Source: a bacterium (GTDB lineage Bacteria; Margulisbacteria; Marinamargulisbacteria; SXXA01). From it: a DNA stretch of 34,078 bases. Both the position numbers and the translations under genes were made by a program. Numbering within the stretch: the first letter of the stretch is position 1; each line of letters opens with the position of its first letter. The notes under the pieces were generated by a model. It did not search any database, was not told the origin of the DNA, and was given only the letters and a program-made list of their open reading frames with translations. The stretch is taken from the NCBI GenBank assembly GCA_947502965.1, contig CANNCG010000001.1:1-34078 (forward strand), given 5' to 3'. Positions 1,242-32,577 of this stretch are shown here, piece by piece.

Positions 1242-1347
1242 ACCCTACACATTCCCCAACCCATCCGGTATACTAAAACCCTTTGGAGACAGCGGTCCAT
1301 TTTCATCACGGCGCTTTTGCACAATGTGCCATCACAGGAGTTATTGG

Positions 1348-3364: not shown

Positions 3365-3406
3365 AGCTATTTTTCTTGGTGTTACCAAGAAAAATAGCTT
3401 CTTTTT
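3363..3406. terminator. Bidirectional rho-independent terminator between convergent genes
   Basis: Perfect 18-bp stem GAAGCTATTTTTCTTGGT / ACCAAGAAAAATAGCTTC with a 3-nt loop, followed by TTTTT. It lies between the hydrolase stop and the esterase stop. Confidence 0.7.
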
Positions 3407-5178: not shown

Positions 5179-5248
5179 GACAATCTCCTTTTCTTTATAT
5201 AGGGCTACCCCAAATAATAGTCACAGTAGGTAATCGTTACGCTACACG

Positions 5249-5336
5249 GGGGCTTGAGGGCATCAGCCCCAAAAAAACATTCTTGCGCGGCTTTGCCGCG
5301 CAAGAAAAAGGGATGCTGAAAAGGCTTCGCCCTTTC
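5249..5336. repeat. Cluster of three GC-rich stem-loops in a divergent intergenic region
   Basis: A: GGGGCTTGA-gggca-TCAGCCCC (5249-5270). B: TCTTGCGCGGC-ttt-GCCGCGCAAGA (5281-5305, perfect 11 bp). C: GAAAAGGC-ttc-GCCCTTTC (about 5318-5336, 1 mismatch). Confidence 0.5.
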
Positions 5337-5457
5337 GATCCCCCGCCCATAGCGCACCAATTATCTCCGTAGGGTAGTAGGTGATAGAACCAATGTAAAG
5401 ATCTATGCTAAAGTAACCCCCCATACCTTAGAAATTTCCCCTCAAAAAGGAGCATTT

Positions 5458-6171
5458 ATGACCCCGACATCTCCAAGTTACGCATTGCGGCCATCTGCAG
5501 AACGTGGCCACGCAGACCATGGCTGGCTCAAGGCCACCCATAGCTTTTCTTTCGCCAACTATCACGACCCAAAACACATGCATTTTCGGGCATTACGGGT
5601 ACTCAATCAGGACAAAGTGGCCCCCCATAGCGGCTTTGCCACACATCCCCATCAAGAAATGGAAATTGTCACGATTGTGCTCTCCGGCCGTCTCGAACAC
5701 AAAGACAGCACAGGCAATACCGGACAACTGGGAGCCGCCGATATTCAGGTCATGCACGCAGGCACAGGCCTCACCCATAGCGAAAAAAACCCTGGGGAAG
5801 ACTGGTTACATTTGCTCCAAATATGGCTGATACCGAAGACTAAAGGCGTCACCCCCAGCTGGGAACAAAAACAATTCGATATGACCGCCCCCCGCCATGA
5901 CGTATTCCTCTGCTCAGAACATGCGGAAAACGGCAGTTTGAAACTCTACCAAGATGCCGCTATTCGTTCCGTAGGTCTACCAGAAAACGCCGACTGGCAC
6001 TATGCCCTTAGTCCCTCACGACATGCATGGCTGCACTTGGTGTCAGGACAGATCCGCATCAATGACACACACACCCTCATCGCCGGCGACAGCATCGGCA
6101 TCTCCTATGTGGACACGGTTACCATTGTGGCCGCAGAGTCCGCACGATTTATTTGGTTCGACCTCGCGTAA
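5458..6171 (+). CDS. Pirin family protein
   Basis: [25 protein letters not shown]...[14 protein letters not shown] bicupin pattern. AAGGAG lies upstream of the ATG. Confidence 0.85.
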
Positions 6172-6181
6172 AGGAAATAAA

Positions 6182-7060
6182 ATGAAAGCCATTGTCTTAG
6201 CCGGAGGGTCTGGCAGCCGTCTGTATCCGCTCACCCGCGTCATCTCAAAGCAGCTGCTCCCGATCTATGACAAACCCATGATCTACTACCCCTTGTCCGT
6301 TCTCATGCTCGCAGGGATTCGTGAGGTTTTGATTATTTCAACGCCGCAAGACATTGGCCGCTTCGAGCAAGTGTTGGGGAATGGACAGCAATGGGGCATC
6401 CACCTCGAATACGCCGTACAAGACCACCCTGGAGGTATTTCACAAGCCTTTTTGGTAGGTGAGAAATTTATCAATGGCGAACCCTGCGCCCTGATTCTGG
6501 GAGACAACATTTTTTACGGACGTGGACTCAGCGGGATGCTCACAGAGGCCGTCGCGAGAAGTCATGATACCGCCACTGTGTTTGCCTATTACGTGCAAGA
6601 CCCCGAACGCTTTGGCGTCGTCAGTTTTGACGCAAACAAAAATGCCCTGGATATCGAAGAAAAACCCCAAAATCCAAAATCAAATTATGCCGTAACCGGG
6701 CTGTATTTCTACGACAACACCGTGGTCGAAAAAACCAAGGCCCTCGCCCCTTCCGCACGTGGCGAATTGGAAATCACCGATTTGAACCGACGCTATCTCA
6801 AAGAAAAAAAGCTCAAAGTGGAGCAACTAGGACGCGGGTTTGCATGGCTGGACACGGGCACACATGACAGTCTTTTAGAGGCCGGAAATTTCGTAGAAAC
6901 AATCGAAAAGCGTCAGGGATTAAAAATCGCATGCTTGGAAGAAATCGCCTACATCAAAGGATTTATCGACCAAGAGGCCCTCATCGCACTGGCAAAACCC
7001 ATGGCCAAAATTGAATATGGTCAATATTTACTCAAAATCAGTCAGGAGTCCCGTCTGTGA
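6182..7060 (+). CDS. rfbA: Glucose-1-phosphate thymidylyltransferase
   Basis: [18 protein letters not shown]..., LGDNIFYG and [21 protein letters not shown] lies before ATG 6182. The ORF-track extension back to 6002 overlaps pirin. Confidence 0.9.
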
Positions 7061-8091
7061 AAAACATTCTTGTCACGGGTGGCGCAGGGTTTATCGGCGC
7101 CAACTTTGTCCCCTATTTTCTCGAAAAAAACCCCGATTGCAGCATTATTACCCTAGACAAATTGACCTATGCCGGCAATCTCACGCATTTGGCAGATGTC
7201 ATCCATCACCCCAGACACAAATTCATCCAAGGGGATATTTGCAATGCAGAGATGGTGCAGCATATTTTCAAGGAATACCACATCCAAGGCGTGGTGCATT
7301 TTGCAGCAGAAAGCCATGTCGACAACTCCATTTCAGGACCCCGTGTTTTTGTTGAAACCAACGTAATGGGGACATTTGTTTTGCTCGAAACGGCCAGACA
7401 CGCATGGATGAATGGCCCTCATAAAATCAAAGACCATGCCTACTACAATCGGTTTCACCATGTCTCCACAGACGAGGTCTATGGGTCTCTTAGCCAAATA
7501 GGGGCCTTCACAGAGACAACCCCCTACGCCCCAAATTCCCCCTACAGTGCGACAAAGGCCAGCAGCGATTTCCTCGTACGAAGCTATTTCCACACCTACG
7601 GTCTGAATGTCGTGACCACCAACTGTTCCAACAACTTTGGGCCAAAACAACACAAAGAAAAACTGATTCCCACCATTATACGCAAGGCCTTGGCCAGCGA
7701 GCCCATTCCCATTTACGGCGATGGCAAAAATGTCCGCGACTGGCTCTACGTCCTAGACCACTGCGAAGCCATTGATCTGGTTTTTCATCAGGGAAAAACA
7801 GGAGAAACCTATAATATTGGTTCAGAAAATGAAGTTGAAAATCTCAAATTGGCCCAAAAAATCTGTCACATTCTAGACAGTTTACAGCCACGTACAGACG
7901 GAAACAGCTACACCTCGTTGATCACCTTTGTCCCGGATAGACCTGGGCATGACCACCGCTATGCCATCGATGCCACCAAAATTCAGGAAGCACTGGGATG
8001 GCGATCCGGCACCGCCTTTGCAGATAGCCTTCGAGATACCATTCAATGGTATCTGTCTACGCCCAACAAACCGTTAAGGACGGCAACTTAA
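7057..8091 (+). CDS. rfbB: dTDP-glucose 4,6-dehydratase
   Basis: [33 protein letters not shown] and [10 protein letters not shown]. The GTG start overlaps the rfbA stop. Confidence 0.9.
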
Positions 8092-20831: not shown

Positions 20832-20890
20832 TTGACTTATGATTTAAAAAAAACAAATAATGACGCGATATATAAAATATCGCGATTATT
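20832..20890 (+). promoter_or_regulatory. Putative sigma70 promoter with overlapping operator-like palindrome upstream of the prepilin gene
   Basis: TTGACT (20832-20837), N18, AATAAT (20856-20861). The palindrome AATAAT-ga-CGCGATAT-ataaa-ATATCGCG-ATTATT spans 20856-20890. Confidence 0.35.
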
Positions 20891-20919
20891 CTAGGGGTTT
20901 TACAAAAAGGAGTATCGTC

Positions 20920-21318
20920 ATGAATCAGTCAGGGTTTAGTCTTATCGAATTGGTTATTGTTATCGCCATTATGGGATTGTTGGGGATGGCCGCTGTACCC
21001 AGTTTTAGTGCCATACAAAACAAAACCAAAAACACGTCTTTCAAATCTACCGCACATACCATTGAAATGGCCCTAGAGACCTATGTATTGGACAAGGGCG
21101 CGTATCCTAGTGGTCAAAACGTCAGTGCCTCAGCATTGGTCGAAACACTTATGACGGCAGGACTACTCACTACCGTCCCAATAAATCCATTCACAGGGAA
21201 GGCTATCGCAGAAACAGATGCCAAAGGGCGGTTATCCTATAGTCAGACCGAGTCCGGATACACACTCACTGTCTATGGCAGCGATACAGACACCCCGATT
21301 GCGACCTTGGTGCGATAA
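20920..21318 (+). CDS. Prepilin-type N-terminal cleavage/methylation domain protein (PulG/ComGC-like pseudopilin or type IV pilin)
   Basis: MNQSG|FSLIELVIVIAIMGLLGMAAVP class III signal. AGGAG lies 8 nt upstream of ATG 20920. Confidence 0.8.
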   Translation: MNQSGFSLIELVIVIAIMGLLGMAAVPSFSAIQNKTKNTSFKSTAHTIEMALETYVLDKGAYPSGQNVSASALVETLMTAGLLTTVPINPFTGKAIAETDAKGRLSYSQTESGYTLTVYGSDTDTPIATLVR

Positions 21319-21352
21319 GGTCCCTCCCCAGAGAGGGGCCTTATTTTTTTTC
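21318..21352 (+). terminator. Rho-independent terminator of the prepilin gene
   Basis: AAGGTCCCTC-cccaga-GAGGGGCCTT followed by ATTTTTTTT. A second hairpin, TTGAGGAT...ATCCTCAA (21354-21386), lies between it and the fliA stop. Confidence 0.7.
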
Positions 21353-21404: not shown

Positions 21405-22046
21405 TCATCCATCTATCATTGGCTGACTCAATGTCGCCAGCTTAGGGCCACCAATGACTTTTCTGAGCTTCTCTATGGCTTTTTTATAGATACGCGATAT
21501 TTGAGATTCGGACACCCCTATGAGTTCACCTATTTGTTTAAAGGTTAAATCATCTTTGGTATGGGACAGCACTATTTTTCGCTCACGCATCGACAATACT
21601 TTCATCGCTTCTTGCAATTGAACACCTGTTTCAATTTCATTTTCAAAATCGGCCCTGTCTTGAATGGCCATCAAAATATAGGCAGCATCTGTCACCCAAT
21701 CGTACAAGCGTGAGGGATCTGCACGCGTAATAAAGCGAATATGGTCTTTCATCGCACCAACAATACGGGCCCTCGCCAGCGGCCAAATATCGGGGCAGCG
21801 GCTAGGAACCCAGACCTTTACCGTCTCCAAAAACTCCAAATGGGCCACCGTTTTGAGGTCATCTATTTCGCTATCCACCACATGGTAGGGCAAATGACGA
21901 CTATAACGACGTACAATGGCATTTACTTTTGGCTGAAAGCGGATTAAGACCGCATTCACATGTTTAGACAACAATTGAACTTTTAGCTGATTCAAAACAG
22001 GCAATTCCAATTTTTCCCACAACACGGTCAATGTGTCTGACATCAA
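21405..22046 (-). CDS. fliA: Sigma-70 family sigma factor, FliA/sigma-28-like
   Basis: Region 4 HTH: LSMRERKIVLSHTKDDLTFKQIGELIGVSESQISRIYKKAIEKLR. Last gene of the flagellar operon, as in Pseudomonas/Vibrio. The ATG overlaps the upstream stop. Confidence 0.7.
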   Translation of the reverse strand: MMSDTLTVLWEKLELPVLNQLKVQLLSKHVNAVLIRFQPKVNAIVRRYSRHLPYHVVDSEIDDLKTVAHLEFLETVKVWVPSRCPDIWPLARARIVGAMKDHIRFITRADPSRLYDWVTDAAYILMAIQDRADFENEIETGVQLQEAMKVLSMRERKIVLSHTKDDLTFKQIGELIGVSESQISRIYKKAIEKLRKVIGGPKLATLSQPMIDG

Positions 22047-22312
22047 GAAATGCGAAGCTCCGCGAGCACCAATGTCCAGTACGCATTCTCACATTCTTTG
22101 TCCGCCAATTCTTGCGGGAGCAGTACTTGGGCCAACATTTCAGCCAAAGACTTTACCTTATCTGAAATCCACAGTTTGTCTTCGTCCGACAATCCCGCCA
22201 AATTTTCCAAACGAATATCCACATAATTGGGACCGGTTGCCCTATGACGCACACGCCGGTAGTCACTTTGGGGAATATGCTCTAGAAAAAAACGGCGGTC
22301 GTCATCACTCAT
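22043..22312 (-). CDS. Hypothetical 89-aa acidic protein, translationally coupled between flhA and fliA
   Basis: ATGA overlaps at both ends. No recognisable family. Occupies the position where flhF/flhG normally lie. Confidence 0.55.
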   Translation of the reverse strand: MSDDDRRFFLEHIPQSDYRRVRHRATGPNYVDIRLENLAGLSDEDKLWISDKVKSLAEMLAQVLLPQELADKECENAYWTLVLAELRIS

Positions 22313-24384
22313 TCGCTGATCATTCCAATAGATTGGACCTTGATTTGCGGCACAATCTCATTGTACGAGAGCACCGACAACTGGGGGAAATTCCTCTCCG
22401 AGAACCGCTTTAAATGGACCCGAAGACGGGGAGAACAGAGCGAAACAGGGGCCTTTTCCATTTTTCGAAAGTTGGCCATATGCTCCCCAATCTGACTCAA
22501 TACCTGCTCTCCCAGTTGTGGATCCAAAGCCAGAAATGAGCCATATTCCGATTGATGCACAGAATTAATCATGAGCTCTTCTAAACGCGGATCAATCGTA
22601 AACACAGTCAGGACGTCATCCGTATCCACATAGCCTGTACAAATCTGACGTGCCAAGGCTTGACGCACATATTCTGACAGCAAATTGGTATCACGAGACA
22701 CATGCGCATAGTCTGCCAAACGCTCCAAAATAGTAGACAAATCACGAATCGACACACGCTCCCGAACAAGAGATTGCAACACTTTGTGCACCTGCCCCAA
22801 AGAGAGCATATCGGGAACCAATTCTCTCACGATAGCCGCATTCGAATTTTTGACAAGCTCCAACAGGGATTGGACGTTTTGACGGGTCATAATCTCATCC
22901 GCATGCTGCTTGATGGCATCCGAAAAATGATTGGCAATAAAGTCTGTAATATTTTGTGCCGGGATCAGGTTGTCTTGCAAAGCCTCCAACTGATCCTCAG
23001 ACACCCATGCGCCTGGAAAAGCCGTGATCGGGTCTGTCGCCTCGATGCTATCAATGCCCTTGCGCTTGAGTTCAGCGGACGATTTTGGCACAAAGAAGTG
23101 GCCAGGTAACGCCTCCCCCACCGCGATTTTGGTACCCCGAATATCGATTTGATAGTGATTGGGCGGCAAGCTCAAATCGTCCATCACCCGCACCCCAGGA
23201 ATAACAAACCCCAATTCCTGTCCAATGTGATACCGCACCAAGGTAATCCGTTCCAGTAGTGGCCCATTTTGACTGGGGTCAATCAACGGCACCAAATTGC
23301 GCCCCGTTTTGAGACTAATAGGATCCAAGCCCAATGTGTTGAGCAAATTCTCTGGCTTTTTGAGCGCATCTTTGGCCGCTTCTTGGGTAGAATCTGTCGC
23401 CATTTCATCTTCTTGGCGCTGGGTTTTCATAATAAAGGCAGCCAAAGCACCCATCCCTACACCACAGGCCAAAAAAGGAACAGTCGGCATACCTGGAATA
23501 ATACCAAACAACATGAGCACCACAGACGTCACCGCAAAGGCCTTGGGCTGTGAAAAAATCTGGGCAGATACATCGGAGCCCAGACTCGCATCAGACGCCG
23601 ATTTTGTCACGACCAAACCTGTTGCGATCGAAATCAACAAAGCCGGAATCTGTGCCACCAAACCATCCCCAATGGTGAGGGTGGTGTAAAGGGTCATCGC
23701 CTCCCCTATTGCCAGATCTTTCTGGAAACGGCCAATAATAATACCACCGATGATGTTTACAAAAACAATAATAATACCGGCAATGGCGTCCCCTTTGACG
23801 AATTTATTCGCACCATCCATAGACCCAAAAAACGTGGATTCGCGCTCCAGTTTTTTACGACGCTCTCGGGCCTGTTCCGCATCGATCAAGCCTGCGTTCA
23901 TATCCGCATCAATACTCATCTGCTTACCAGGCAAGGCATCCAAAGTAAAACGCGCAGCAACCTCAGCAACACGCTCAGACCCTTTTGTAACCACCAAAAA
24001 TTGGACAAGGGTAATAATAGCAAAGGCCACAATCCCCACCACAAAATTGCCACGGGTGACAAATCCGGCAAAAGCCGCGACCATATGTCCGTCAAAGTCA
24101 GGGCCCAATGACAAAATCAATTTGGTCGACGCCACGTTAATCGAGAGACGAAACAGCGTTGTAATGAGCAACAAAGAGGGGAAGGCGGCAAAATCCAAAG
24201 GCTGTTTCAAATACATAGAGACCAAAAGAATGGCCACAGAAATAGCCAGATTGATTACCATCAAATAATCCAACATAATGGTTGGAATAGGCATGATCAT
24301 GACGCCGATGATCAGGATAACAATCGTCGCCAACAAGACGTCTGCTAAACTAAAAAGTTCTCTTAATTGTCTGAAACCAAACAT
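22309..24384 (-). CDS. flhA: Flagellar-type T3SS export gate protein FlhA (FHIPEP family)
   Basis: N-terminal polytopic domain (IMPIPTIMLDYLMVINLAISV..., FVKGDAIAGIIIVFVNIIGGIIIG) plus a large cytoplasmic domain. ATG 24384 lies 4 nt after the flhB stop and is preferred over 24438. Confidence 0.9.
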   Translation of the reverse strand: MFGFRQLRELFSLADVLLATIVILIIGVMIMPIPTIMLDYLMVINLAISVAILLVSMYLKQPLDFAAFPSLLLITTLFRLSINVASTKLILSLGPDFDGHMVAAFAGFVTRGNFVVGIVAFAIITLVQFLVVTKGSERVAEVAARFTLDALPGKQMSIDADMNAGLIDAEQARERRKKLERESTFFGSMDGANKFVKGDAIAGIIIVFVNIIGGIIIGRFQKDLAIGEAMTLYTTLTIGDGLVAQIPALLISIATGLVVTKSASDASLGSDVSAQIFSQPKAFAVTSVVLMLFGIIPGMPTVPFLACGVGMGALAAFIMKTQRQEDEMATDSTQEAAKDALKKPENLLNTLGLDPISLKTGRNLVPLIDPSQNGPLLERITLVRYHIGQELGFVIPGVRVMDDLSLPPNHYQIDIRGTKIAVGEALPGHFFVPKSSAELKRKGIDSIEATDPITAFPGAWVSEDQLEALQDNLIPAQNITDFIANHFSDAIKQHADEIMTRQNVQSLLELVKNSNAAIVRELVPDMLSLGQVHKVLQSLVRERVSIRDLSTILERLADYAHVSRDTNLLSEYVRQALARQICTGYVDTDDVLTVFTIDPRLEELMINSVHQSEYGSFLALDPQLGEQVLSQIGEHMANFRKMEKAPVSLCSPRLRVHLKRFSERNFPQLSVLSYNEIVPQIKVQSIGMISE

Positions 24385-24388
24385 AGGG

Positions 24389-25468
24389 TTATAGGGTATC
24401 CTGTCGATGTCCGCGCTTTTTGCGCAAATTATACACAAAGGCCAATATTTGAGCTACCGCCTTATAGTATTGCGGCGGCACTTCCGTGTCCACCTCCACT
24501 ACAGGGAACAAGGCTCTGGCAAGCGCCACATTTTCTACAATGACAATATTATTCTCTGAGGCAATACGCTTTATGGTTTCCGCAATTAATAACTTCCCTT
24601 TGGCCACCACCACAGGGGCTTTCATCTTGTCCGGTTTGTAGGCCAATGCAATGGCAATATGCGTGGGGTTTGTCACCACCACATCAGCCCCTGGCACAGC
24701 CCCCATTTGTCTCCCCATAGACATCTGCCTTGCCGCTTCTTTTTGACGCTGCTTGATTTGAGGATCTCCTTCGAGACGCTTGTATTCATCTTTGATTTCT
24801 TTTTTGGTCATTTTCATAGACTTCAAATGCTCATGTTGTTGATAAAAATAATCAAAAATAGCAACTGCAATATAAAACATACCGACCCGAACAACTACTT
24901 TCATCACCAAATTCCCGGTAAAAGACATGCCCTGCCATGGATCCAAACTTTGTGACAAGATCACAATGGGAAACTCTTCCACAACAACCCCGTAAATCAA
25001 CCATATGATCACTATCATTTTAATCGTTGACTTGACCAATTCTACATATTGTTTGAGGGCAAAAAACTTCTTAAACCCCTCAATGGGGTTCAGTTTTTCT
25101 AATTTAGGGGCAATGGAGGACATTGAAAAAAGAAATCCCGTTTGCAGCGATTCGATAATCAAAGCCGTCATAAATGTCGCAAAAAACAAAGGCGCCATAG
25201 CAAATAAAAAAGAATACACCGTATCTTTTAGCAAATTCCCCACAACGCTTTCAGAAAACACCAAAGGAATATAACCAAAAGAATTCCTTAAAATGATTTC
25301 CATTTCTGCCCAAAGATGACCGACAGAGGATTTCAAGGTAAAGAAAGAGACAAAAATCATCGTGACGGAGGTGATATCTTTGCTCTTGGCAATTTGCCCT
25401 TTTTCCCTGGATTCCCTCAATTTATGGGGGGTAGGTTCCTCTGTTTTATCCCCAGAATCCTCACCCAT
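24389..25468 (-). CDS. flhB: Flagellar-type T3SS substrate-specificity switch protein FlhB
   Basis: GDKTEEPTPHKLRESREKGQIAKSKD start, four TM segments and the NPTH autocleavage site (VVVTNPTHIAIALAY). Confidence 0.9.
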   Translation of the reverse strand: MGEDSGDKTEEPTPHKLRESREKGQIAKSKDITSVTMIFVSFFTLKSSVGHLWAEMEIILRNSFGYIPLVFSESVVGNLLKDTVYSFLFAMAPLFFATFMTALIIESLQTGFLFSMSSIAPKLEKLNPIEGFKKFFALKQYVELVKSTIKMIVIIWLIYGVVVEEFPIVILSQSLDPWQGMSFTGNLVMKVVVRVGMFYIAVAIFDYFYQQHEHLKSMKMTKKEIKDEYKRLEGDPQIKQRQKEAARQMSMGRQMGAVPGADVVVTNPTHIAIALAYKPDKMKAPVVVAKGKLLIAETIKRIASENNIVIVENVALARALFPVVEVDTEVPPQYYKAVAQILAFVYNLRKKRGHRQDTL

Positions 25469-26242
25469 TTATGTGGTCCCCAAATAAAAAAATACGCGCA
25501 ACAAGTGTTCTGAAATGGCTTCCATAATGGTGTAAATCTGAGAGACTAAACCTGGCGCAATGGCCCAAAAAACCAATACACTGACCATGGGTTTGATTTG
25601 AAATCCCATTTGAAACACATTGATTTGTTCTGCCACTTTGTTGAGCATGCCAAACCCAAAATCTACCATGAATACCACCAACAAAATTGGGGCAGACAGC
25701 TGTACCGCCAATCCAAAAATATAGGTCCCTAGCTGGGCAAGATACAGCATTCCTGCGCCAAAGTTGGGAATCTTTCCTACCGGCAACAGATTAAAGCTCT
25801 GCATCAAGGCGGACAAAACCAAATGATGCCCATCAATGGCCAAAAACATCATCGTCGCCGTCCACTTGAGCAACAAAGACAACAATGACATGGAACGTCC
25901 ACTAGACGGGTCCAAAAGAGAGGCCACACTCAAACCCGCCTGCGTGTCCATGAGACTGCCGGCAAATTCCATCCCCGTGACCAACAGATCGGTCACAAAA
26001 CCGATCATTGCACCAATGAGCAATTCAGAAAAAAAAGCAAAACCAAAGGTTAACACATTGTCTGGGACGTCTTGTGAAACCGGTACCAAAAAAATAAAAA
26101 GCCCCGAAATCCAAAACATCAGCATGACCTTGGGCAACAGGGGCAATTCTTTTCTACTCAATACAGGCGCCGTAATAAACAGACCTATGAGACGGGTCAT
26201 AATGAGAAAAAAAACAGTGACAACCTGAAGGTTAATAAACAT
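25469..26242 (-). CDS. fliR: Flagellar-type T3SS export gate protein FliR
   Basis: 257-aa polytopic protein between fliQ and flhB, with a FliR-like N-terminus (FFLIMTRLIGLFITAPV). Confidence 0.85.
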   Translation of the reverse strand: MFINLQVVTVFFLIMTRLIGLFITAPVLSRKELPLLPKVMLMFWISGLFIFLVPVSQDVPDNVLTFGFAFFSELLIGAMIGFVTDLLVTGMEFAGSLMDTQAGLSVASLLDPSSGRSMSLLSLLLKWTATMMFLAIDGHHLVLSALMQSFNLLPVGKIPNFGAGMLYLAQLGTYIFGLAVQLSAPILLVVFMVDFGFGMLNKVAEQINVFQMGFQIKPMVSVLVFWAIAPGLVSQIYTIMEAISEHLLRVFFYLGTT

Positions 26243-26245
26243 AAA

Positions 26246-26515
26246 CTACCGAGAATACAACGGAATGTTACGCCAAAGCTCCAACGTCATTTCCATGACA
26301 ATTCTGGCCACCCAAGGAAAGGTAGCCACTACCACTAGCAAAACAACCACCATTTTAGGAACAAAAGTCAGAGTTTGCTCTTGCACCTGTGTCACCGCCT
26401 GTAAAAGCGCAATCACCAAACCAATCAACAAACCTACGCCCACACTGGGCAAACTTGCCAATAAGATGACCTGAACGGCAGAATTTAGTATACCGGTTAC
26501 AATATCAATGTCCAT
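26246..26515 (-). CDS. fliQ: Flagellar-type T3SS export gate protein FliQ
   Basis: 89-aa two-TM protein with ...GLLIGLVIALLQAVTQVQEQTLTFVPK, characteristic of FliQ/SctS. Confidence 0.9.
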   Translation of the reverse strand: MDIDIVTGILNSAVQVILLASLPSVGVGLLIGLVIALLQAVTQVQEQTLTFVPKMVVVLLVVVATFPWVARIVMEMTLELWRNIPLYSR

Positions 26516-26518
26516 AAT

Positions 26519-27559
26519 TCACGACCTCCTCAGCTTCTGTGTTATGATTGTCTCTTGCACCCAGCTATCCGTCTTATTAGCAAGAGGCATTTCTACTGTA
26601 GCCGGTCCATCTGATCGGAATACCAAATGAACAGGATAATAGCTACCAGATTGCGGAATGATCTCAAGAACCATATTTTTTTTACTCTGCGGGGGCAAGT
26701 TTAGACTAAGGAGCTCCACAATAGCCGGAAATCCTGTTCCCCCAACATTCCCAGTCTGGAGCACTTGGGTGCCATTAAGACGTACCACTGCCCTCGCAAT
26801 ACCTCCCACTGGCGAAAAAAACAACATCACACGCCTAGCAACACGGTCTGGATTTTCCAGATTAGCATGAATTTTATAGGTTACCCCATAGTTCCCTTTT
26901 AAAGGGTATTCTGATAGAGGATTTCGCACAAAGGGCAGTCCGCCTATGGGAATCTCACTCACAATATCCCCAATCCTGTAAAAAACATCCCTTACCATAG
27001 TAGGGGAAAGATACACCATCGGCGTGACATCTCTCGCCATGACCGCATAGGAAGCATCTGGATACTCAGGATCGATGACACGGGATTCAAACACGGTGTC
27101 CACATCGGACTCACATTCAAAAATACCAGAAACAATCTCATCTGGCTTGATCAGCACATCCAAGAGCATGCTTTCCTGCGTACTAAGGGACCACATAGCC
27201 TTTGTTTTGGGCACTTGATTCCAGTATCTGGAAACCGCCTTATGTCCTGCAAAGACCTCATCTAAAACAGGTCCCGCCGCCGCCAATAAAGCCCCCATTT
27301 TTCCAGAGCCAGCTGTTGCTTTTACGGTAATGATAAATCTCAAGGGAATCGATGTCACATTTTTATGATGGTACAGCAGACGTAGTGACTTCCTTGCAGG
27401 CACGGGATAGATAAACAAGGATGCAGGCTCTGAAAGACGTTCTGGACTATTGCTCACGACCAATAGGTCAACAGCAGACACCGTCAACGACAACCATCCC
27501 CAGAAAAAAAGAATACTGCTTTTAAAAAAAAAGAAGCTGAGAGGTCGCCCCACACTCAT
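26519..27559 (-). CDS. Hypothetical secreted/periplasmic protein embedded between fliP and fliQ
   Basis: The ATG overlaps the fliP stop (ATGA), and the stop lies 3 nt before the fliQ start. Signal-like N-terminus ...ILFFWGWLSLTVSA|VD. The remaining ~320 aa have no recognisable family. Confidence 0.65.
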   Translation of the reverse strand: MSVGRPLSFFFFKSSILFFWGWLSLTVSAVDLLVVSNSPERLSEPASLFIYPVPARKSLRLLYHHKNVTSIPLRFIITVKATAGSGKMGALLAAAGPVLDEVFAGHKAVSRYWNQVPKTKAMWSLSTQESMLLDVLIKPDEIVSGIFECESDVDTVFESRVIDPEYPDASYAVMARDVTPMVYLSPTMVRDVFYRIGDIVSEIPIGGLPFVRNPLSEYPLKGNYGVTYKIHANLENPDRVARRVMLFFSPVGGIARAVVRLNGTQVLQTGNVGGTGFPAIVELLSLNLPPQSKKNMVLEIIPQSGSYYPVHLVFRSDGPATVEMPLANKTDSWVQETIITQKLRRS

Positions 27560-28302
27560 CGGTAGCTAACCAAAAGCCCCTGTATAATCAGATTCCACCC
27601 ATCCGTTAGCACAAAAAGCAATATTTTAAAGGGCAAGGAAATCATAGCCGGAGATAACATAAACATTCCCAAAGACAATAAAATATTAGAAACAATCAAA
27701 TCAATGACAATAAAGGGAATAAACAACAAAAAGCCCACTTGAAATGCCGTTTTGAGTTCTGAAATAATAAAGGCAGGAATCAACACAAAAAAAGGCACTT
27801 CTTCATAATCCATCGTATACGGCACTTTTGAAAATTCCAAAAACAAAGCCAAATCTTTTTCTCTCGTGTACTTCAACATAAAAATCTTGAGGGGTTTAGA
27901 GGCTTCATCAAGGGCCTGCATCTGAGAAAGTGTCCCTTCTTGATAGGGCTTAATCGCGTTATTGCTCACCTGATCCCAAACAGGGGTCATGACAAATACG
28001 CTCAAGAATAGGGCCAAGGACACAATAACCATATTGGGAGGCGCCTGCTGGGTACCAATGGCCTGACGAACCATACTCAAGACAATCACTATACGCAAAA
28101 AGCAAGTCGTGGACATCAGAAAAAAAGGAATCAGACCAATTGCAGACAAAAAGAAAAGAAGATTAAGGGTTCTGCTAAAATTTTGGGGCGTTGCCAATGC
28201 ATCTTGGACACCCAAATTTAAAAAGCCAGGGTCTTGTTGTGCATACACTGTCACAGGAACCAGCACCAAAAACCCCACAAAAACCCAAAACAATCGCTTC
28301 AT
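27556..28302 (-). CDS. fliP: Flagellar-type T3SS export gate protein FliP
   Basis: Signal peptide plus SAIGLIPFFLMSTTCFLRIVIVLSMVRQAIGTQQAPPN and LIPAFIISELKTAFQVGFLLFIPFIVIDLIVSNILLSLGM, hallmark FliP/SctR blocks. Confidence 0.95.
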   Translation of the reverse strand: MKRLFWVFVGFLVLVPVTVYAQQDPGFLNLGVQDALATPQNFSRTLNLLFFLSAIGLIPFFLMSTTCFLRIVIVLSMVRQAIGTQQAPPNMVIVSLALFLSVFVMTPVWDQVSNNAIKPYQEGTLSQMQALDEASKPLKIFMLKYTREKDLALFLEFSKVPYTMDYEEVPFFVLIPAFIISELKTAFQVGFLLFIPFIVIDLIVSNILLSLGMFMLSPAMISLPFKILLFVLTDGWNLIIQGLLVSYR

Positions 28303-28538
28303 TTTAGCTTATCCAAGACCTTTATTTCTTTTGCATTAATACCCAACAAAAACTCATGATCTCTCACCGAAACCAACATCAATGAAATACCCTGATCCAA
28401 GCCTTTGCGATCTAAAACTTTAATTTCTTCTGTAAAGGGGTGCTTTTGAGCACGTTTTGCCATTTTCGAAAACACAAACAACGCGCCCCCCAACAAGGTC
28501 AAAGAAAAAAGAACCTGAAGGGAGTACCCGATCGTCAT
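28299..28538 (-). CDS. fliO: FliO-like single-pass membrane protein
   Basis: 79 aa with one TM helix, then ...ISLMLVSVRDHEFLLGINAKEIKVLDKL. Immediately upstream of fliP and overlapping it. Confidence 0.7.
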   Translation of the reverse strand: MTIGYSLQVLFSLTLLGGALFVFSKMAKRAQKHPFTEEIKVLDRKGLDQGISLMLVSVRDHEFLLGINAKEIKVLDKLK

Positions 28539-28541
28539 ATA

Positions 28542-29054
28542 TTAGGTGTTCGGGGCTGATTTAATAGCCGTAATACGAAGTCCATAATTGTTATCCACAG
28601 CAACCACCTCACCTTGGGCGATAACCTGTCCATTTACAACCAAATCCAATGGTTCTCCCACCAGACGATCCAGCTCCACAATGGCACCATCAGACAGCTC
28701 AAATACATCTTTAAGAGACACCTGACAACGACCAAGCTCTACAGACACAGTAACAGGAATGCGGTTAAACACATCTTCCTCCAATTTTTGGCCACTCGTA
28801 TTGGCACTGGGCGTCAATACCGGAAATTCAACATCTGCCACTGCAGGGCGCGACGAAGACGCCAAGTCTGGAGACGGAGTGTCCCAAGAAAAGGAAGGGG
28901 CATCGGAGGCCGTTTCTTTAATCTTGGTCTCAGCCTTTGTTTTTGGATCGGCCTTGGGCTCACGACTGACAGGGAACCCATCTCCTCCAAAGGCATCTTT
29001 TAAAACAGGATCAATACCGTGTAAGGGATCATCAAATACTTTTTTCTTAGCCAT
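28542..29054 (-). CDS. fliN: Flagellar motor switch protein FliN (SpoA domain)
   Basis: C-terminal IPVTVSVELGRCQVSLKDVFELSDGAIVELDRLVGEPLDLVVNGQVIAQGEVVAVDNNYGLRITAI. ATG 29054 (MAKKKVF) overlaps the parA-like stop by 8 nt. Confidence 0.85.
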   Translation of the reverse strand: MAKKKVFDDPLHGIDPVLKDAFGGDGFPVSREPKADPKTKAETKIKETASDAPSFSWDTPSPDLASSSRPAVADVEFPVLTPSANTSGQKLEEDVFNRIPVTVSVELGRCQVSLKDVFELSDGAIVELDRLVGEPLDLVVNGQVIAQGEVVAVDNNYGLRITAIKSAPNT

Positions 29055-29787
29055 GCGAAAGCACCTCATTAATTAACCGTCGATAGTCATCAGCAGCACT
29101 AGAACGTGGGGAAAATTCAAAAATTGTTTGTCTATAACCTGGAGACTCAGACAGACCTACGCTTAGCCGAATGGGCGATGAAAGTTGCCCGGGGAATACA
29201 CGCTCAAGACTGTCCATGATATGGGCTGTTTTACGATTACGCTTATCATAAAACGTTGGTACAATTTTACAAATACGGATTTCCTTTCCGAGGATTTTAT
29301 TCACGATATCAATATTATTCAATAGCTGCTTAATTCCAACCAAAGACAAATATTCCATGGACACTGGCAATAAAAGTTCATCCGAAAAAATAAGAGAATT
29401 TTGATTCATCAAATTCATCGACGGCGCACAATCAACAATAATAAAATCATATCCCGTTAGAGATGCCAAGCGACGACTCAAGACATGCTCTCTGCCTTTT
29501 TCTGTTGCCAAGCGCATCTCTGCTGGGAAAAGTCGTTCATTTGCACAAATAATATCCAAATTGGGCCTAGCAGAAACGATGCATTCGGATACAGGTCTGA
29601 GGCCCATGACCACGTCATAAACCGTAACATCTGATTCCACACCCAAGTAATATCCGGCAGACCCTTGGGGATCTGTGTCCACGATCAAAACGCGTTTACC
29701 AAGAAGGGCCAGACCGTGGGCCATATTGACAACTGTACTGGTTTTACCGGTCCCACCTTTGTAATTAATGACTGCCAACTTACGCAT
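29047..29787 (-). CDS. ParA/Soj-type P-loop ATPase encoded between fliM and fliN
   Basis: Deviant Walker A AVINYKGGTGKTSTVVN, then LIVDTDPQGS and IIVDCAPS. There is no parB-like neighbour. Confidence 0.85.
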   Translation of the reverse strand: MRKLAVINYKGGTGKTSTVVNMAHGLALLGKRVLIVDTDPQGSAGYYLGVESDVTVYDVVMGLRPVSECIVSARPNLDIICANERLFPAEMRLATEKGREHVLSRRLASLTGYDFIIVDCAPSMNLMNQNSLIFSDELLLPVSMEYLSLVGIKQLLNNIDIVNKILGKEIRICKIVPTFYDKRNRKTAHIMDSLERVFPGQLSSPIRLSVGLSESPGYRQTIFEFSPRSSAADDYRRLINEVLSHG

Positions 29788-29801
29788 AATTTGTCACTTT
29801 A

Positions 29802-31226
29802 TTACAATTCATCGTCGAGGTCATCCCAAGAAAATTCACTATCATCGGCATCACCATGAACCTCTTCTTGCCCATGTGTTTCGGCATTTTCAGACGCTTC
29901 ATCTTCATCTTCTGAAAAATCAAAAAGCGCATCTGAAGAGTCTGTCTGCGCATCGTCGTGATCGTCTTCGTAATCCAATTCATCTTCAATTTCAAATTCA
30001 TGATCGTCTACCACTGGCTCATGTAAAAAATCTTCCTCAAGCAACGTTTCCTCCTCAGGTATGATAGACGGGGACGCCACAGCTACAGCCGCCGCCACAG
30101 CACCCAGCATGGCACCCGGAACAGCCACCGGCACAGACATTGGACGCACATACACTTCTTCTTTGAGAGAAGATAGGCTGTCTTCAATTTTAACAGAAGG
30201 GGCAACCTCTATGGGTTGTCGAGACGCAGGATTTTTCTCCACAACAGGCTTCTTCTCCGGCGGGAGACTCACACCCTTCTGCCCAAAACGGTGCAATTGA
30301 ATCGACAGTTTACGCGATGGCGAAACCCCAGGATATCCAAGCCATGGCTCAGAATCGGCCCCGAAATAAACCTTCAAGGGCTGATCTGTAACCGTATCCA
30401 AAACAATCACATCCCCCACACGAAGTTGGCGCAATTCCGACATTGTCAGAGAAGCAGTCCCAAGAGAAACAGAAACATTCACCTTCAAGGCATGAAGGGT
30501 TTGCTTAGAAAAATTAACCTGCTTCTCTTTTTTCGGCTTATTGATTTGCGACTGATGCACCAATTCCCGCAACAGTGTATTGGGGTACGCAATCACAAAC
30601 TTACGCAGTTCTTGTTGCCCAAAAACCAAATAAAAACCAAATTGGACATAGGCCTCTCGAAAAGAAATCTTAGGATTTCTACGATACGGCCCCACAGCAA
30701 AATCAATTACGGCGTGCGCAGGCGGAATACGCCACGTTTTAGCGACTTCGGGCAACAAAGCTTCGATTTGCGCCTTGAGTATACTCGTTTCCATGGACGT
30801 AAAGGAATCTGAATGCCCCACACTCCCAGATCCGCCAACCAAACGATTGATCATCATATCTGCCAAATCCCAATCAAAAAGCAAATTAATTTTATGCCCC
30901 GCAGAAAAAACGACATCGGCCTGGACAACTTTTTCTTTCGCATTCTCTAAAAATTCTTTATAGCTCATTTGTGTGGCAAGGACAGTATGCAGTTCAACCT
31001 TAATGTCCATATCCGTAGAGAATTTCACACAAAGACGTTCTGCAAGACGGTAATGCAAATAATGCAAAAAACGCAATTGCTCACGTGTTAAACTGTCAAA
31101 ATTACTGGTACGAATCGGGTGGATCTCAATAGCATCTACGGACTCCCGTTGATGCACCGTTGTCCAATCCCCAATGGCAGGAGCAAGTTTAATCGTTCTA
31201 TGAAACTTTGGGCTATACTTTTGCAC
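29802..31226 (-). CDS. fliM: Flagellar motor switch protein FliM with atypical termini
   Basis: IRTSNFDSLTREQLRFLHYLHYRLAERL, INRLVGGSGS and a C-terminal SpoA domain (SLTMSELRQLRVGDVIVLD...) match FliM. There is no LSQxEIDxLL motif in residues 1-37. A 159-aa extension follows residue ~315. Confidence 0.85.
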   Translation of the reverse strand: MQKYSPKFHRTIKLAPAIGDWTTVHQRESVDAIEIHPIRTSNFDSLTREQLRFLHYLHYRLAERLCVKFSTDMDIKVELHTVLATQMSYKEFLENAKEKVVQADVVFSAGHKINLLFDWDLADMMINRLVGGSGSVGHSDSFTSMETSILKAQIEALLPEVAKTWRIPPAHAVIDFAVGPYRRNPKISFREAYVQFGFYLVFGQQELRKFVIAYPNTLLRELVHQSQINKPKKEKQVNFSKQTLHALKVNVSVSLGTASLTMSELRQLRVGDVIVLDTVTDQPLKVYFGADSEPWLGYPGVSPSRKLSIQLHRFGQKGVSLPPEKKPVVEKNPASRQPIEVAPSVKIEDSLSSLKEEVYVRPMSVPVAVPGAMLGAVAAAVAVASPSIIPEEETLLEEDFLHEPVVDDHEFEIEDELDYEDDHDDAQTDSSDALFDFSEDEDEASENAETHGQEEVHGDADDSEFSWDDLDDEL

Positions 31227-31919
31227 CTAGATTCGCTCCAATCTCATTTTTAATGGGGTTCCATCAGACAATAAGGGAGACCCTTTGTAGATAACGACTT
31301 CTAAACGTTCGCGCTTCCCCGTCCCAATGTCCGAGACAAGAACAAGCTCCCCATCTGGATAGGGGACGACCACGGGGTCATCGAATATCGTAGCAAGGGC
31401 AGCCGAGGAACCTGTTTCCCCACTGATTAGAGGAGAGAGACTAACACTCAACTGTTTTTCTGCTTCATAGGTCCGTTTCCGTTTCATTTCTGTGGCGAGT
31501 TCCAACTCCCGACGTTTTACCGTAGGACCTGTACCAGCGGCACCTTCAAATACAACCCGGAGAAGTACCATAGATTTGAGGAGAGTATCATACACGCTGA
31601 CCTCATAGCCGTCATCCTGTTTAACAATACTCTGCACAGGCCCCCTCCCTATAACAGCACCGGAAGAATCCGAATACCAAACCATAGCCCCCAGTAATTT
31701 TGACTTCAAAAAATAATCCACGCGCATCCCGACAGTCAGGGAAGATTTCTGCTCCCCAACCTGTTTTTTTACCTCAGATTCTACCCATTCCTTCATCAAC
31801 GGAGAGTCAAAATTCATATTCATATCTACGGACATGAGAGGACAAGAAAGAACAAGTAGCAAAAAGAAAAAGAGAAAGCAGATTCTACCCAACATCCCAC
31901 AAAAGCGTATTTTAGACAT
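31227..31919 (-). CDS. Putative lipoprotein at the position normally occupied by fliL
   Basis: MSKIRFCGMLGRICFLFFFLLLVLS|C lipobox-like signal. Start at ATG 31919, overlapping the upstream stop by 8 nt. No recognisable FliL motif; placement is by synteny only. Confidence 0.55.
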   Translation of the reverse strand: MSKIRFCGMLGRICFLFFFLLLVLSCPLMSVDMNMNFDSPLMKEWVESEVKKQVGEQKSSLTVGMRVDYFLKSKLLGAMVWYSDSSGAVIGRGPVQSIVKQDDGYEVSVYDTLLKSMVLLRVVFEGAAGTGPTVKRRELELATEMKRKRTYEAEKQLSVSLSPLISGETGSSAALATIFDDPVVVPYPDGELVLVSDIGTGKRERLEVVIYKGSPLLSDGTPLKMRLERI

Positions 31920-32577
31920 AAAAAAATATCTGATCCCCCTCTGAGAGCGCATCTAGGGAAGCCTGCGACTCGTGCGGATTATCTTGTTGCTGACGCCCCT
32001 GTTGAAATCCAGAGTGGGAAGGGAACTCGTCAAACGCCAGGTCAACTTCACCCATTTGCACAAAACGCACCAGCACAGAGCGGTCTAGGATATCGGACAA
32101 ACGGGTCTGCAAGACGGATTTTTGATCCTGCGCTTTTGCAAACAAATCCTCGCCAGCGAGCTGCACCACGATGACGAGACCCTGCGCATTTTTTTCAAAC
32201 CGAACACGTATCATTAAGGGCGCTTCTTTGGGCATCACCACAGGCATACCCAGGATGGATCGCACTTCCTGAAGAATACTGACAGAGAGATCCGGCAATT
32301 GATCCATGCCAAAGGCAGGCCCAGCAACCATCCCCTGCAACAACTGTGTCCCTAACTGAAGGTCAGACATACTAGACTCAGAGGCCAAGCGCCCCTCTAT
32401 ATCATCCTCCGCAGACCCCATGAGGAAGCTACCATCTTCCTGCGCGATCATGCGAACACCCGCGTCTTCTTTACTGGCCTGCTGAAACATAGAACCAAAG
32501 GGCATGTCGCTGCCGGGCGTTTCAGCCCCACGAGACACCCCCCCAGAAAAAAACGGTGGCAGAGACTCTAACCGCAT
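31912..32577 (-). CDS. Hypothetical protein at the fliK position, weakly FliK/T3S4-like C-terminal region
   Basis: Synteny (first gene, before the fliL position and fliM). The segment PLMIRVRFEKNAQGLVIVVQLAGEDLFAKAQDQKSVLQTRLSDILDRS... followed by a Q-rich tail loosely resembles the Flg_hook/T3S4 pattern. 221 aa is short for FliK. Confidence 0.35.
   Translation of the reverse strand: MRLESLPPFFSGGVSRGAETPGSDMPFGSMFQQASKEDAGVRMIAQEDGSFLMGSAEDDIEGRLASESSMSDLQLGTQLLQGMVAGPAFGMDQLPDLSVSILQEVRSILGMPVVMPKEAPLMIRVRFEKNAQGLVIVVQLAGEDLFAKAQDQKSVLQTRLSDILDRSVLVRFVQMGEVDLAFDEFPSHSGFQQGRQQQDNPHESQASLDALSEGDQIFFYV

Follow-up and report, generated by a model that had tools for sequence, protein, structure and literature searches.

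A predicted exported, beta-rich protein encoded between fliP and fliQ in Margulisbacteria, with a possible accessory role for the flagellum at the cell envelope

Few gene neighbors in flagellar and injectisome loci are as invariant as the export-gate genes fliP, fliQ, and fliR, and the literature that we searched does not describe a gene lying between fliP and fliQ. That literature likewise contained nothing relevant on the flagella of Margulisbacteria, with no mention in the Margulisbacteria genomics papers that it covered. Here we describe a gene, called X below, that occupies this position in a contig from this group.

The described proteins closest to X in general character are the periplasmic flagellar accessory and P/L-ring proteins of diderm bacteria (FlgP, FlgT, FlgO, PflA/PflB, MotX/MotY, and FlgI/FlgH/FlgA). 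They are Sec-exported proteins of the periplasm, mostly rich in beta structure, whose genes accompany those of the flagellum, traits that X appears to share, and their occurrence is patchy among lineages, as is that of X. Their genes, however, sit with rod, ring, or motor genes, whereas homologues of X lie mostly outside flagellar loci, and we know of no accessory or P/L-ring gene inside fliP-fliQ. FlgJ, SltF, and PleA offer a shared concept, that of an envelope-remodeling factor letting the rod cross the wall, but in Pfam searches X has no glucosaminidase, lytic transglycosylase, SLT, or rod-binding domain, and its modeled fold is a jelly-roll sandwich rather than the lysozyme-like fold of FlgJ-type hydrolases. 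A further point of comparison, found in diderm Terrabacteria, is their outer-membrane gene cluster (BamA-Skp-LpxD-LpxC/FabZ-LpxA-LpxB), in which X homologues are often embedded; the copy described here differs in lying in a flagellar export operon and in lacking the N-terminal modules of those paralogues. In diderm Firmicutes, the outer-membrane gene cluster contains motility genes, flgH, flgI, and flgA stand in a separate conserved six-gene cluster, and uncharacterized genes have been noted together with flagellar genes inside outer-membrane clusters (Antunes et al. 2016, PMC5007114). Our literature search did not find the X family as a named or studied component of such clusters.

In the window (the whole 34,078-nucleotide stretch of DNA that was analyzed), gene X and its surroundings are laid out as follows.

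26519..27559, minus strand: gene X, predicted 346-aa exported protein, ATG start, stop codon included (open reading frame listing and sequence)
27556..27559, minus strand: ATGA in which the fliP stop and the X start codon overlap (sequence context cgATGAgt)
26519-26521, minus strand: X stop codon TGA; the fliQ ATG is at 26515, after a 3-nt spacer (ATT)
26525..26529, minus strand: GGAGG Shine-Dalgarno sequence of fliQ, 9 nt upstream of its ATG and within the 3' end of X
27556..28302, minus strand: fliP (PF00813, E 2e-78)
26246..26515, minus strand: fliQ (PF01313, E 5.6e-22)
25469..26242, minus strand: fliR (PF01311, E 5.7e-57)
28299..28538, minus strand: fliO (PF04347, E 9e-7; TIGR03500 match under its cutoff)
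21405..31226, minus strand: codirectional flagellar operon around X (Pfam and NCBIfam matches)

The operon runs fliM, a ParA/FlhG-like gene, fliN, fliO, fliP, X, fliQ, fliR, flhB, flhA, orf89, and a gene for a FliA-like sigma factor, an order that is identical in three related loci (L001 to L003). The first-pass annotation, made from the letters alone, had placed the X start in an overlap with the fliP stop and the X stop 3 nt ahead of fliQ; both junctions read as it described, and the Pfam matches identify the flanking genes as true fliP and fliQ. As X overlaps or abuts both neighbors, it is probably cotranscribed with them and translationally coupled to FliP. Neither terminators nor promoters above chance were found inside the operon, and the composition and codon usage of X are like those of its neighbors and host. 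For these reasons, X is a long-standing resident of the genome, and recent horizontal insertion was rejected on the fit of composition and codon usage. X is also a real gene under selection and not a chance reading frame, given its 29 homologues in the protein database, its match to the family hidden Markov model (E 1.5e-79), and a dN/dS of ~0.15 (against L001, L002, and L081).

The arrangement is not peculiar to this contig. The order fliP-X-fliQ recurs in 39 loci (L001-L003, L006, L010, L011, L015, L026, L081, and L085, plus 29 metagenome loci) that belong to one FliP clade, apparently Margulisbacteria, and the survey of other genomes proposed in the first-pass annotation thus finds X tightly placed on both sides. 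As to the host lineage, the closest named relatives by UvrB are Margulisiibacteriota/Marinamargulisbacteria, at 60-68% identity. Across these loci FliP falls to 53-76% identity and X to 25-31%. The 4-nt ATGA overlap with fliP is present in at least 20 of the 39, the X start lies between -14 and +18 nt from the fliP stop in 36 of the 39, and in 27 of 31 the fliQ start lies within 11 nt of the end of X. Where the operon has split (L103, L106, and L107), X remains with fliP while fliQ and fliR are encoded elsewhere.

X is nevertheless not present wherever the gate genes occur: in 13 related loci, nested inside the X-bearing clade, fliP and fliQ are adjacent without it, outgroup loci lack it as well, and within the clade X has been lost at least 4 to 5 times. 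It also evolves differently from the gate. Between the window and L001 or L002, FliP, FliQ, and FliR are 91-99% identical, against 58-64% for X, and in the comparison that gave ~0.15 for X, the dN/dS values of FliP/Q/R and FlhA are 0.01-0.04, with values for FliN against L002 and FliR against L081 left out as alignment artifacts. The dN/dS of X is thus 4 to 14 times that of FliP/Q/R. Such repeated loss among related lineages makes it unlikely that X is a subunit or plug of the FliPQR gate.

The protein divides into four parts.

27473..27559, minus strand: predicted signal peptide, residues 1-29, with n, h, and c regions and predicted cleavage between VSA and VD; AxA-type site conserved in relatives
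27032..27472, minus strand: modeled beta-sandwich domain 1, residues ~30-176 (full model pLDDT 85.9, domain model pLDDT 93.6)
26591..27031, minus strand: predicted beta-sandwich domain 2, residues ~177-323 (model and conservation)
26519..26590, minus strand: disordered, nonconserved C-terminal tail, residues 324-346 plus stop (pLDDT <50); its DNA contains the fliQ ribosome-binding site

The signal peptide was called by inspection and hydropathy. R5 and K13 are followed by the h-region SSILFFWGWLSLTV and then by VSA and VD, which satisfy the -3/-1 rule, so that X has the charged n-region, the 10-15-residue h-region, and the small residues at -3/-1 of a signal peptidase I substrate. Relatives show corresponding sites (between MSA and DL, or between ALA and AD), and an equivalent n/h/c layout is found in 39 of 39 flagellar-locus copies. 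The signal-like N-terminus noted in the first-pass annotation therefore stands, and X is predicted to be a Sec-exported protein of ~32 kDa once the signal peptide is removed.

In the AlphaFold model of the full protein (pLDDT 85.9), residues 1-26 are disordered (pLDDT <50) and the remainder is beta-rich, forming two beta domains; the fold is all-beta and soluble, and the N-terminal leader is its only hydrophobic segment. Conserved residues in domain 1 are S36, N37, P39, E40, R60, H64, H65, and N67, together with a helix at 101-115; those in domain 2 are G222-N-Y224-G225, Y228, N236, P302, G305, Y308, and P309. The C-terminal tails of relatives vary in length and frame. A recurring 'QEVVNNGY' tail was considered as an interaction peptide and rejected, as it is the fliQ ribosome-binding site and ATG read in the X frame.

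This agrees with the description of X as a beta-rich product of no assignable family, there being no Pfam match above threshold. The NCBIfam search gave no match at E up to 10, the PDB sequence search returned only transthyretin noise (E of 0.1 or above), and the PDB profile search returned only uricase and xylose isomerase noise (E ~0.5). The gate-subunit profiles PF00813, PF01313, PF01311, and PF04347 had no match in X in the Pfam search, nor did the FlgA, FlgH, FlgI, FlgP, FlgT, MotX/Y, or PflA/B profiles at E up to 0.1 in Pfam and up to 10 in NCBIfam. Foldseek, which had been suggested as a check on the AlphaFold model, gave generic tandem jelly-roll or carbohydrate-binding-module (CBM)-like folds for the full model against PDB and viral structures (TM 0.2-0.4), and for domain 1 against PDB nothing beyond generic CBM and jelly-roll folds (best E 2e-3, TM of at most 0.40); no specific structural relative appeared in either search. 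The best 50 PDB matches of the full model and of domain 1 included none of the known ring or scaffold proteins of flagella, and as the folds matched were generic, a known flagellar ring protein was rejected as the identity of X.

The best fold-level resemblance is to botulinum HA70, C-CPE, CBM4/6/16/22/61, Cry domain III, and the SIDT ectodomain. The CBM and jelly-roll domains are, like X, beta-sandwiches, and they carry ligand-binding faces, but the similarity amounts to TM values of 0.2-0.4 at 4-13% identity, with an E value for domain 1 no better than 2e-3. On the model, then, the resemblance is one of generic fold class that assigns no family, and HA70, CPE, SIDT, CUB, and any CBM family were rejected as identities for X on the same TM range. 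A polysaccharide-lyase-like R/H/Y catalytic set was also dropped, as nothing spoke in its favor. The first-pass annotation had held that clear homology to a known, unrelated enzyme would count against a new component; none surfaced, because the family to which X belongs is itself uncharacterized.

That family is large (1,720 clusters at 50% identity in a profile search), and it is mainly nonflagellar: most members occur at loci that lack flagellar genes within 4-6 kb. X matches the family profile significantly over both core domains, and a close relative that is 75% identical (P0002) aligns at profile positions 123-418. Hosts include Armatimonadota, Vulcanimicrobiota, Margulisiibacteriota, and many metagenome-assembled genomes that are unclassified or labeled Bacillota. 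At 34 of 74 nonflagellar loci the homologue lies within the order BamA-Skp-LpxD-[X]-LpxC-LpxA-LpxB, codirectional with the cluster genes and with neighbors confirmed by Pfam; such lpxD/lpxC-cluster members occur in Armatimonadota, Margulisiibacteriota, 'Zipacnadia', 'Fervidifonticultor', and unclassified genomes. About half of the nonflagellar homologues lie away from outer-membrane genes, so the association is a tendency rather than a rule. No lpx or bam gene was found anywhere in the 34-kb window.

All of the family-invariant residues are present in the window copy, namely S-N-x-P-E, R60, H64/H65, N67, G-N-Y-G, Y228, N236, and P-x-x-G-x-x-Y-P, and the sole family residue that is changed is N81, here A. 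The polar family residues are retained throughout the flagellar clade, and residues specific to that clade are few (P45, D163, and P250). What sets the flagellar copies apart is their length upstream of the core: 28-69 residues precede SNxPE in 29 of 32 flagellar copies, against at least 102 in 64 of 64 nonflagellar ones. In the window copy the 35 residues before SNxPE amount to the signal peptide alone, with no N-terminal accessory module. X is thus a stripped-down, core-only paralogue within its family. In a neighbor-joining tree (Poisson distances, highly diverged sequences), the flagellar copies and L018, a locus labeled Margulisiibacteriota that is the nearest nonflagellar relative and adjoins LpxC, make up one bipartition with a transfer bootstrap of 0.93, while the exact bootstrap for a single origin of the flagellar copies is 36%; the flagellar copies thus appear, with moderate support, to form one clade.

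The outer-membrane gene context of its relatives suggests that X assists the flagellum in an accessory capacity at the cell envelope rather than as part of the export gate. The account that we favor, tentatively and at a little short of an even chance, is that X is a periplasmic accessory that handles the envelope and is produced along with the gate. Such a role fits better than an integral one, given a mostly nonflagellar family, 13 related loci that do without X, and a dN/dS well above that of FliP/Q/R. In an ancestor of a Margulisbacteria-like lineage, one family copy appears to have been placed between fliP and fliQ. The coupling of X to gate genes makes it probable that the protein is synthesized just as flagellum assembly begins and at the low level that gate proteins typically have, and it would then act in the periplasm above the nascent gate. 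There, judging from conservation, the polar set E40, R60, H64/H65, N67, Y224, Y228, N236, and Y308 might bind, and possibly process, an envelope glycan or glycolipid, with peptidoglycan and LPS as candidate ligands, and X could thereby ease the passage of the rod across the wall and outer membrane or attach the basal body to these layers.

A bolder and somewhat unlikely extension of this account is that the whole family, encoded between lpxD and lpxC, serves outer-membrane/LPS biogenesis in diderm Terrabacteria as a periplasmic component that has gone unrecognized. The Margulisbacteria duplicate, placed inside fliPQR, would then have become dedicated to the flagellum and be incorporated at the export-gate stage, where it would make an opening or a tether for the rod in the wall and outer membrane as a functional analogue, not a homologue, of FlgJ or of the P/L rings.

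It is also possible, although we consider it unlikely, that X is a structural component of the basal body, forming a ring, collar, or bushing peculiar to its lineage that polymerizes about the rod in the space from the inner to the outer membrane, in the manner of FlgP, FlgT, PflA/B, or the P and L rings. Many lineage-specific flagellar scaffolds, such as those of the Vibrio and Campylobacter motors, are beta-rich and periplasmic, and X is a predicted periplasmic beta-sandwich protein of a core flagellar operon whose family is linked to outer-membrane biogenesis. The motility genes of the diderm Firmicutes outer-membrane cluster and the separate flgH/flgI/flgA cluster (PMC5007114) point the same way. 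X is, however, coupled to the lowest-copy flagellar proteins, whereas a ring would presumably need tens of copies, and its invariant E, R, H, H, Y, Y, and N look more like a putative ligand or active site than a polymerization interface. The absence of a Pfam match, or of a ring or scaffold protein among the best 50 fold matches, and the repeated loss of X within the clade also argue against a structural part.

Repeated loss would likewise be seen for a functionless passenger, and X could be a general envelope or outer-membrane housekeeping protein that rides in the flagellar operon for its expression, with no role specific to the flagellum. The predominantly nonflagellar, outer-membrane-linked family, the relatively fast evolution of X, and its retention of general family residues are all compatible with this. 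We nonetheless think it quite unlikely, as the insertion point and tight coupling have been kept in 39 loci despite divergence of FliP to ~53-60% identity, and the flagellar copies appear to form a clade of their own with a distinct core-only architecture. That a Margulisiibacteriota genome (L018) has a separate paralogue in the outer-membrane cluster speaks for the flagellar copy being a specialized duplicate, and flagellar, FliA-linked regulation would poorly serve a housekeeping envelope gene.

The first-pass annotation had itself proposed a gate-assembly factor, a periplasmic cap or rod substitute, or a plug. Its description of an exported, beta-rich, unassigned protein in a conserved fliP-X-fliQ arrangement holds up; the gate-specific role does not, an obligatory one being unlikely in view of the 13 loci without X and its dN/dS. 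That X might sit on the periplasmic face of FliP5Q4R1 as an assembly factor (for example, a chaperone of the FliP periplasmic domain, alongside FliO), plug, or cap would suit the ATGA coupling to fliP, the abutment on fliQ, the persistence beside fliP where fliQ and fliR have moved away, and the clade-specific P45, D163, and P250, but it is quite improbable: a tight partner of the gate surface should be more conserved than X is beside FliP/Q/R, the same gate genes occur without X in related loci, and the conserved residues of X are those common to nonflagellar paralogues. Nor does X look like an invention specific to the gate, coming as it does from a family of ~1,700 clusters that is mostly nonflagellar and often found in the outer-membrane cluster.

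A conserved, translationally coupled gene inside fliP-fliQ is unusual, and none is described in the literature searched. Margulisbacteria are poorly known, and the finding draws attention to a candidate flagellar accessory protein specific to their lineage. Perhaps weightier is its pointer to an unnamed family often encoded between lpxD and lpxC, in lineages from which, to our knowledge, many BAM, LPT, and tethering accessory proteins of Proteobacteria are missing. Should the family prove to be an envelope-assembly factor, it would be a new component of Terrabacteria outer-membrane biogenesis, and X would be an example of its co-option for getting the flagellum through the envelope.

The sole curated family to give any signal with X was DUF3370 (PF11850), which we take to be a domain of unknown function found mainly in cyanobacteria and of which the literature searched makes no mention. 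Residues 211-248 of X match it at E 0.024 and 13.9 bits over profile positions 294-331. Membership would call for at least 25 bits, the gathering cutoff, over most of the 422-position profile, whereas all scores fall below that cutoff and the match covers ~30-40 positions. DUF3370 matches were seen in 7 of 28 family members, the best of them (E 2.8e-5) still local, and in every case the motif matched was 'GNYGV.Y' (profile positions ~294-331). Since Cyanobacteria are the sister group of Margulisbacteria, a distant relationship between the X family and DUF3370 is plausible.

The flagellar operon of the window is co-directional on the minus strand and runs fliM, a ParA/FlhG-like ATPase gene, fliN, fliO, fliP, X, fliQ, fliR, flhB, flhA, an 89-aa open reading frame (ORF) and the gene for a FliA-like sigma factor, with strong Pfam matches backing the genes that flank X. 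The coordinates given for X (a 346-aa protein) in the first-pass annotation are all right, as judged by the ORF listing and the sequence:

29802-31226, minus strand, fliM
29047-29787, minus strand, ParA/FlhG-like ATPase
27556-28302, minus strand, fliP
26519-27559, minus strand, X
26246-26515, minus strand, fliQ

The fliP stop and the X ATG share 4 nt (cgATGAgt), 3 nt separate the X TGA stop from the fliQ ATG, and the fliQ GGAGG is contained in the last codons of X. Within the operon, terminator-like and promoter-like sites do not exceed shuffled expectation.

X is a real gene and a long-standing resident. Its GC content (0.463) and GC3 (0.447) match the window average (0.466), and its codon usage is close to that of the neighboring genes. 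Of its 29 homologues in the database, nine are close (51-99% identity) and twenty distant (23-31%). Purifying selection acts on it, with a dN/dS of ~0.15 against three relatives, a ratio that is approximate because dS is saturated; the values for FliP, FliQ, FliR, and FlhA are 0.01-0.04, so that X evolves at a rate 4 to 14 times higher.

The product is an exported two-domain beta-sandwich protein. At its N terminus, a charged n-region (R5, K13) leads into a hydrophobic core of 14 residues and then a VSA|VD site, for which relatives have MSA|DL and ALA|AD, and a hydrophobic leader opens all 39 flagellar-locus copies. An AlphaFold2 model built on a 28-sequence alignment (pLDDT 85.9, pTM 0.81) has two beta-sandwich domains at residues ~30-176 and ~177-323, flanked by disorder at residues 1-26 and 324-346; domain 1 modeled by itself reached a pLDDT of 93.6. 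Among the matches listed, Foldseek against the PDB and BFVD gave only generic tandem jelly-roll/CBM-like proteins at TM-scores of 0.2-0.4, including SIDT ectodomains, botulinum HA70, C-CPE, CBM4/6/16/22/61, Cry domain III, and phage tail proteins. Sequence and profile searches of the PDB with X gave only noise, NCBIfam gave no match, and the lone Pfam match was a local, sub-threshold one to DUF3370 on the 'GNYGV.Y' motif. The C-terminal tail varies among relatives, and the 'QEVVNNGY' seen there was rejected as a protein motif, since it arises where the ribosome-binding site and start codon of fliQ are translated in the frame of X.

The fliP-X-fliQ order is kept in close relatives (loci L001-L003 and L081) and in distant ones (L006, L010, L011, L015, L026, and L085), where X is 25-31% and FliP 58-71% identical. 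A metagenome scan seeded with the window FliP returned 52 loci, 29 of which carry an X-family ORF right after fliP (HMM E values of 1e-11 to 1e-81). X starts -14 to +18 nt from the fliP stop in 36 of the 39 X-bearing loci, with the 4-nt overlap in at least 20, and in 27 of 31 the fliQ start lies no further than 11 nt from the X stop. Three loci of one marine or lake sub-lineage (L103, L106, and L107) have split operons, with fliO-fliP-X as the last genes and a convergent uvrB next to them; in these, fliQ, fliR, flhB, and flhA must lie at another site, and X thus travels with fliP. The arrangement that had drawn the attention of the first-pass annotation recurs within one lineage but is not universal, since 13 related loci lack X and have adjacent fliP and fliQ (gaps of -1 to 56 nt). 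The FliP proteins of these X-less loci are 56-72% identical to that of the window over most of its length, except for short partial matches in L135 (69%) and L137 (90%). In a neighbor-joining (NJ) tree of FliP, the deepest branches of the clade belong to X-bearing loci, X-less loci are nested at no fewer than 4-5 separate points, and the outgroups (FliP 43-50% identical) are without X. X has been maintained between fliP and fliQ over a deep lineage, yet lost several times, and the simplest history is a single insertion in the ancestor and repeated loss thereafter. The window UvrB is nearest to proteins labeled Candidatus Margulisiibacteriota or Marinamargulisbacteria (60-68% identity), which puts the lineage within or close to that phylum.

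Searching 1.84 billion representative proteins with a profile extended the X family to 1,720 clusters at E ≤ 1e-3, 684 of them at E ≤ 1e-30. Typical members are ~415 or ~600 aa long, and a window-type protein spans only profile positions ~123-418 of 419, as judged from P0002, a close relative 75% identical. Among species-representative genomes, its members are found in metagenome-assembled genomes labeled Armatimonadota, Vulcanimicrobiota, Bacillota, 'Zipacnadia', 'Fervidifonticultor', and Margulisiibacteriota, with many labeled just 'bacterium'. About 68 of the 76 loci in these genomes lack any flagellar gene within 6 kb, and five metagenome homologues examined one by one were likewise without a nearby flagellar gene. 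Neighbor clustering recovered a recurrent co-directional order, BamA > Skp/OmpH > (unknown) > LpxD > [X] > LpxC > LpxA > LpxB, in 34 of 74 non-flagellar loci, with each partner confirmed by Pfam. Outer-membrane clusters of this kind, with LPS, BAM, tethering, and motility genes and hypothetical proteins, have been described in diderm Firmicutes (Antunes et al., PMC5007114); our literature search found no paper naming the X family. Two more conserved proteins with no Pfam match are repeatedly encoded between Skp and LpxD in the clusters with X homologues, one of ~400 aa (unk401; L012, L019, L021, L023, L031, L037-L041, L046, L049, and L057) and one of ~428 aa (unk428; L017, L027, L034, L050, L062, L065, L071, L076, and L080), and in about 10 loci X is followed by a FecR-domain protein in divergent orientation. 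These may be additional unstudied envelope components.

Outside flagellar loci, the closest relative of the flagellar clade is in L018 (labeled Margulisiibacteriota), flanked by a putative outer-membrane beta-barrel protein and LpxC. In NJ trees a single bipartition unites L018 with the flagellar copies (exact bootstrap 36/100; transfer bootstrap expectation 0.93), and a single origin of the flagellar copies has moderate support from these sequence comparisons. Only a leader of 28-69 residues precedes the family-invariant SNxPE motif (S36-N37-x-P39-E40) in 29 of 32 flagellar copies, whereas in 64 of 64 non-flagellar members the extra N-terminal modules amount to 102 residues or more. The flagellar copies keep S36, N37, P39, E40, R60, H64/H65, N67, the G-N-Y-G motif, Y228, N236, P302, G305, Y308, and P309, with minor departures (H64Y in three copies; N81 lost in the window's subclade), while P45, D163, and P250 are specific to them. 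A further change specific to the flagellar clade is S306C: the family-conserved Ser of the 'PQ(S/A)G(S/C)(Y/F)YP' motif is Cys in 22 of 32 flagellar-locus copies and remains Ser in the window (S306, nt 26642-26644). X is a specialized, core-only paralogue of an uncharacterized family preferentially encoded in an outer-membrane/LPS biogenesis cluster.

Its coupling to the gate genes makes it probable that X is made early and in low copy number. Because it retains the polar constellation of the family, X would probably act chemically as its relatives in the outer-membrane cluster do, with the binding or processing of an envelope glycan or glycolipid at the site of the nascent flagellum as the most plausible activity. 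The low-copy genomic context and the candidate conserved polar site count slightly against X being a large structural ring. The first-pass annotation was correct in its observation, and its interpretation has partial support; its plug, like a gate subunit or an obligatory chaperone, is disfavored by the repeated loss and fast evolution of X. Nor is X likely to be a mere passenger, given its long-conserved position, the distinct architecture of the flagellar copies and the separate existence of an lpx-linked paralogue. X is best placed among the lineage-specific periplasmic flagellar accessory proteins, its own peculiarities being its unusual location and interesting pedigree.

Other features of the operon deserve mention. 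The window FliM is long (474 aa), with a C-terminal extension of ~140 residues beyond the FliM and FliN-C domains that is strongly acidic (D/E-rich) near its end. The ParA/MinD-type ATPase gene overlaps the fliN start by 23 nt, and a homologue holds the same fliM-fliN place in most related loci; NCBIfam gave it only generic ParA-family matches below their cutoffs, and the customary FlhF-FlhG pair after flhA is absent. The 89-aa ORF (22043-22312, minus strand), which overlaps flhA and the sigma factor gene by 4 nt each, has the same length in L001 and L002 and no family match; it is a candidate small regulator, e.g., an anti-sigma or FlhF/FlhG-related factor. As mechanically listed, flhA (22309-24438, minus strand) has a TTG start, a 50-nt overlap with flhB and 709 aa; FlhA has 691 aa in relatives, which makes a downstream codon near 24384 the probable true start. 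Just upstream of fliM, two minus-strand ORFs that lack Pfam and NCBIfam matches and keep their place in L001-L003 may be further lineage-specific flagellar proteins: 31227-31952 (241 aa, with an N-terminal hydrophobic segment) and 31912-32577 (221 aa, acidic and of low complexity). A type IV pilin-like gene with an N-methylation motif (20860-21318, plus strand), likewise present in L001-L003, converges on the operon end, and between them lies the sole strong terminator hairpin of the region (21314-21345; 13-bp stem plus T-run), which may work bidirectionally. At the opposite end of the window, a gene of the RhuM family and a set of sugar-nucleotide genes (163-1041 and 1207-8091; RmlD-, NTP-transferase-, and dTDP-glucose dehydratase-like genes and cupin-domain genes, with an FkbM methyltransferase close by) look like a surface-polysaccharide locus unconnected with X.
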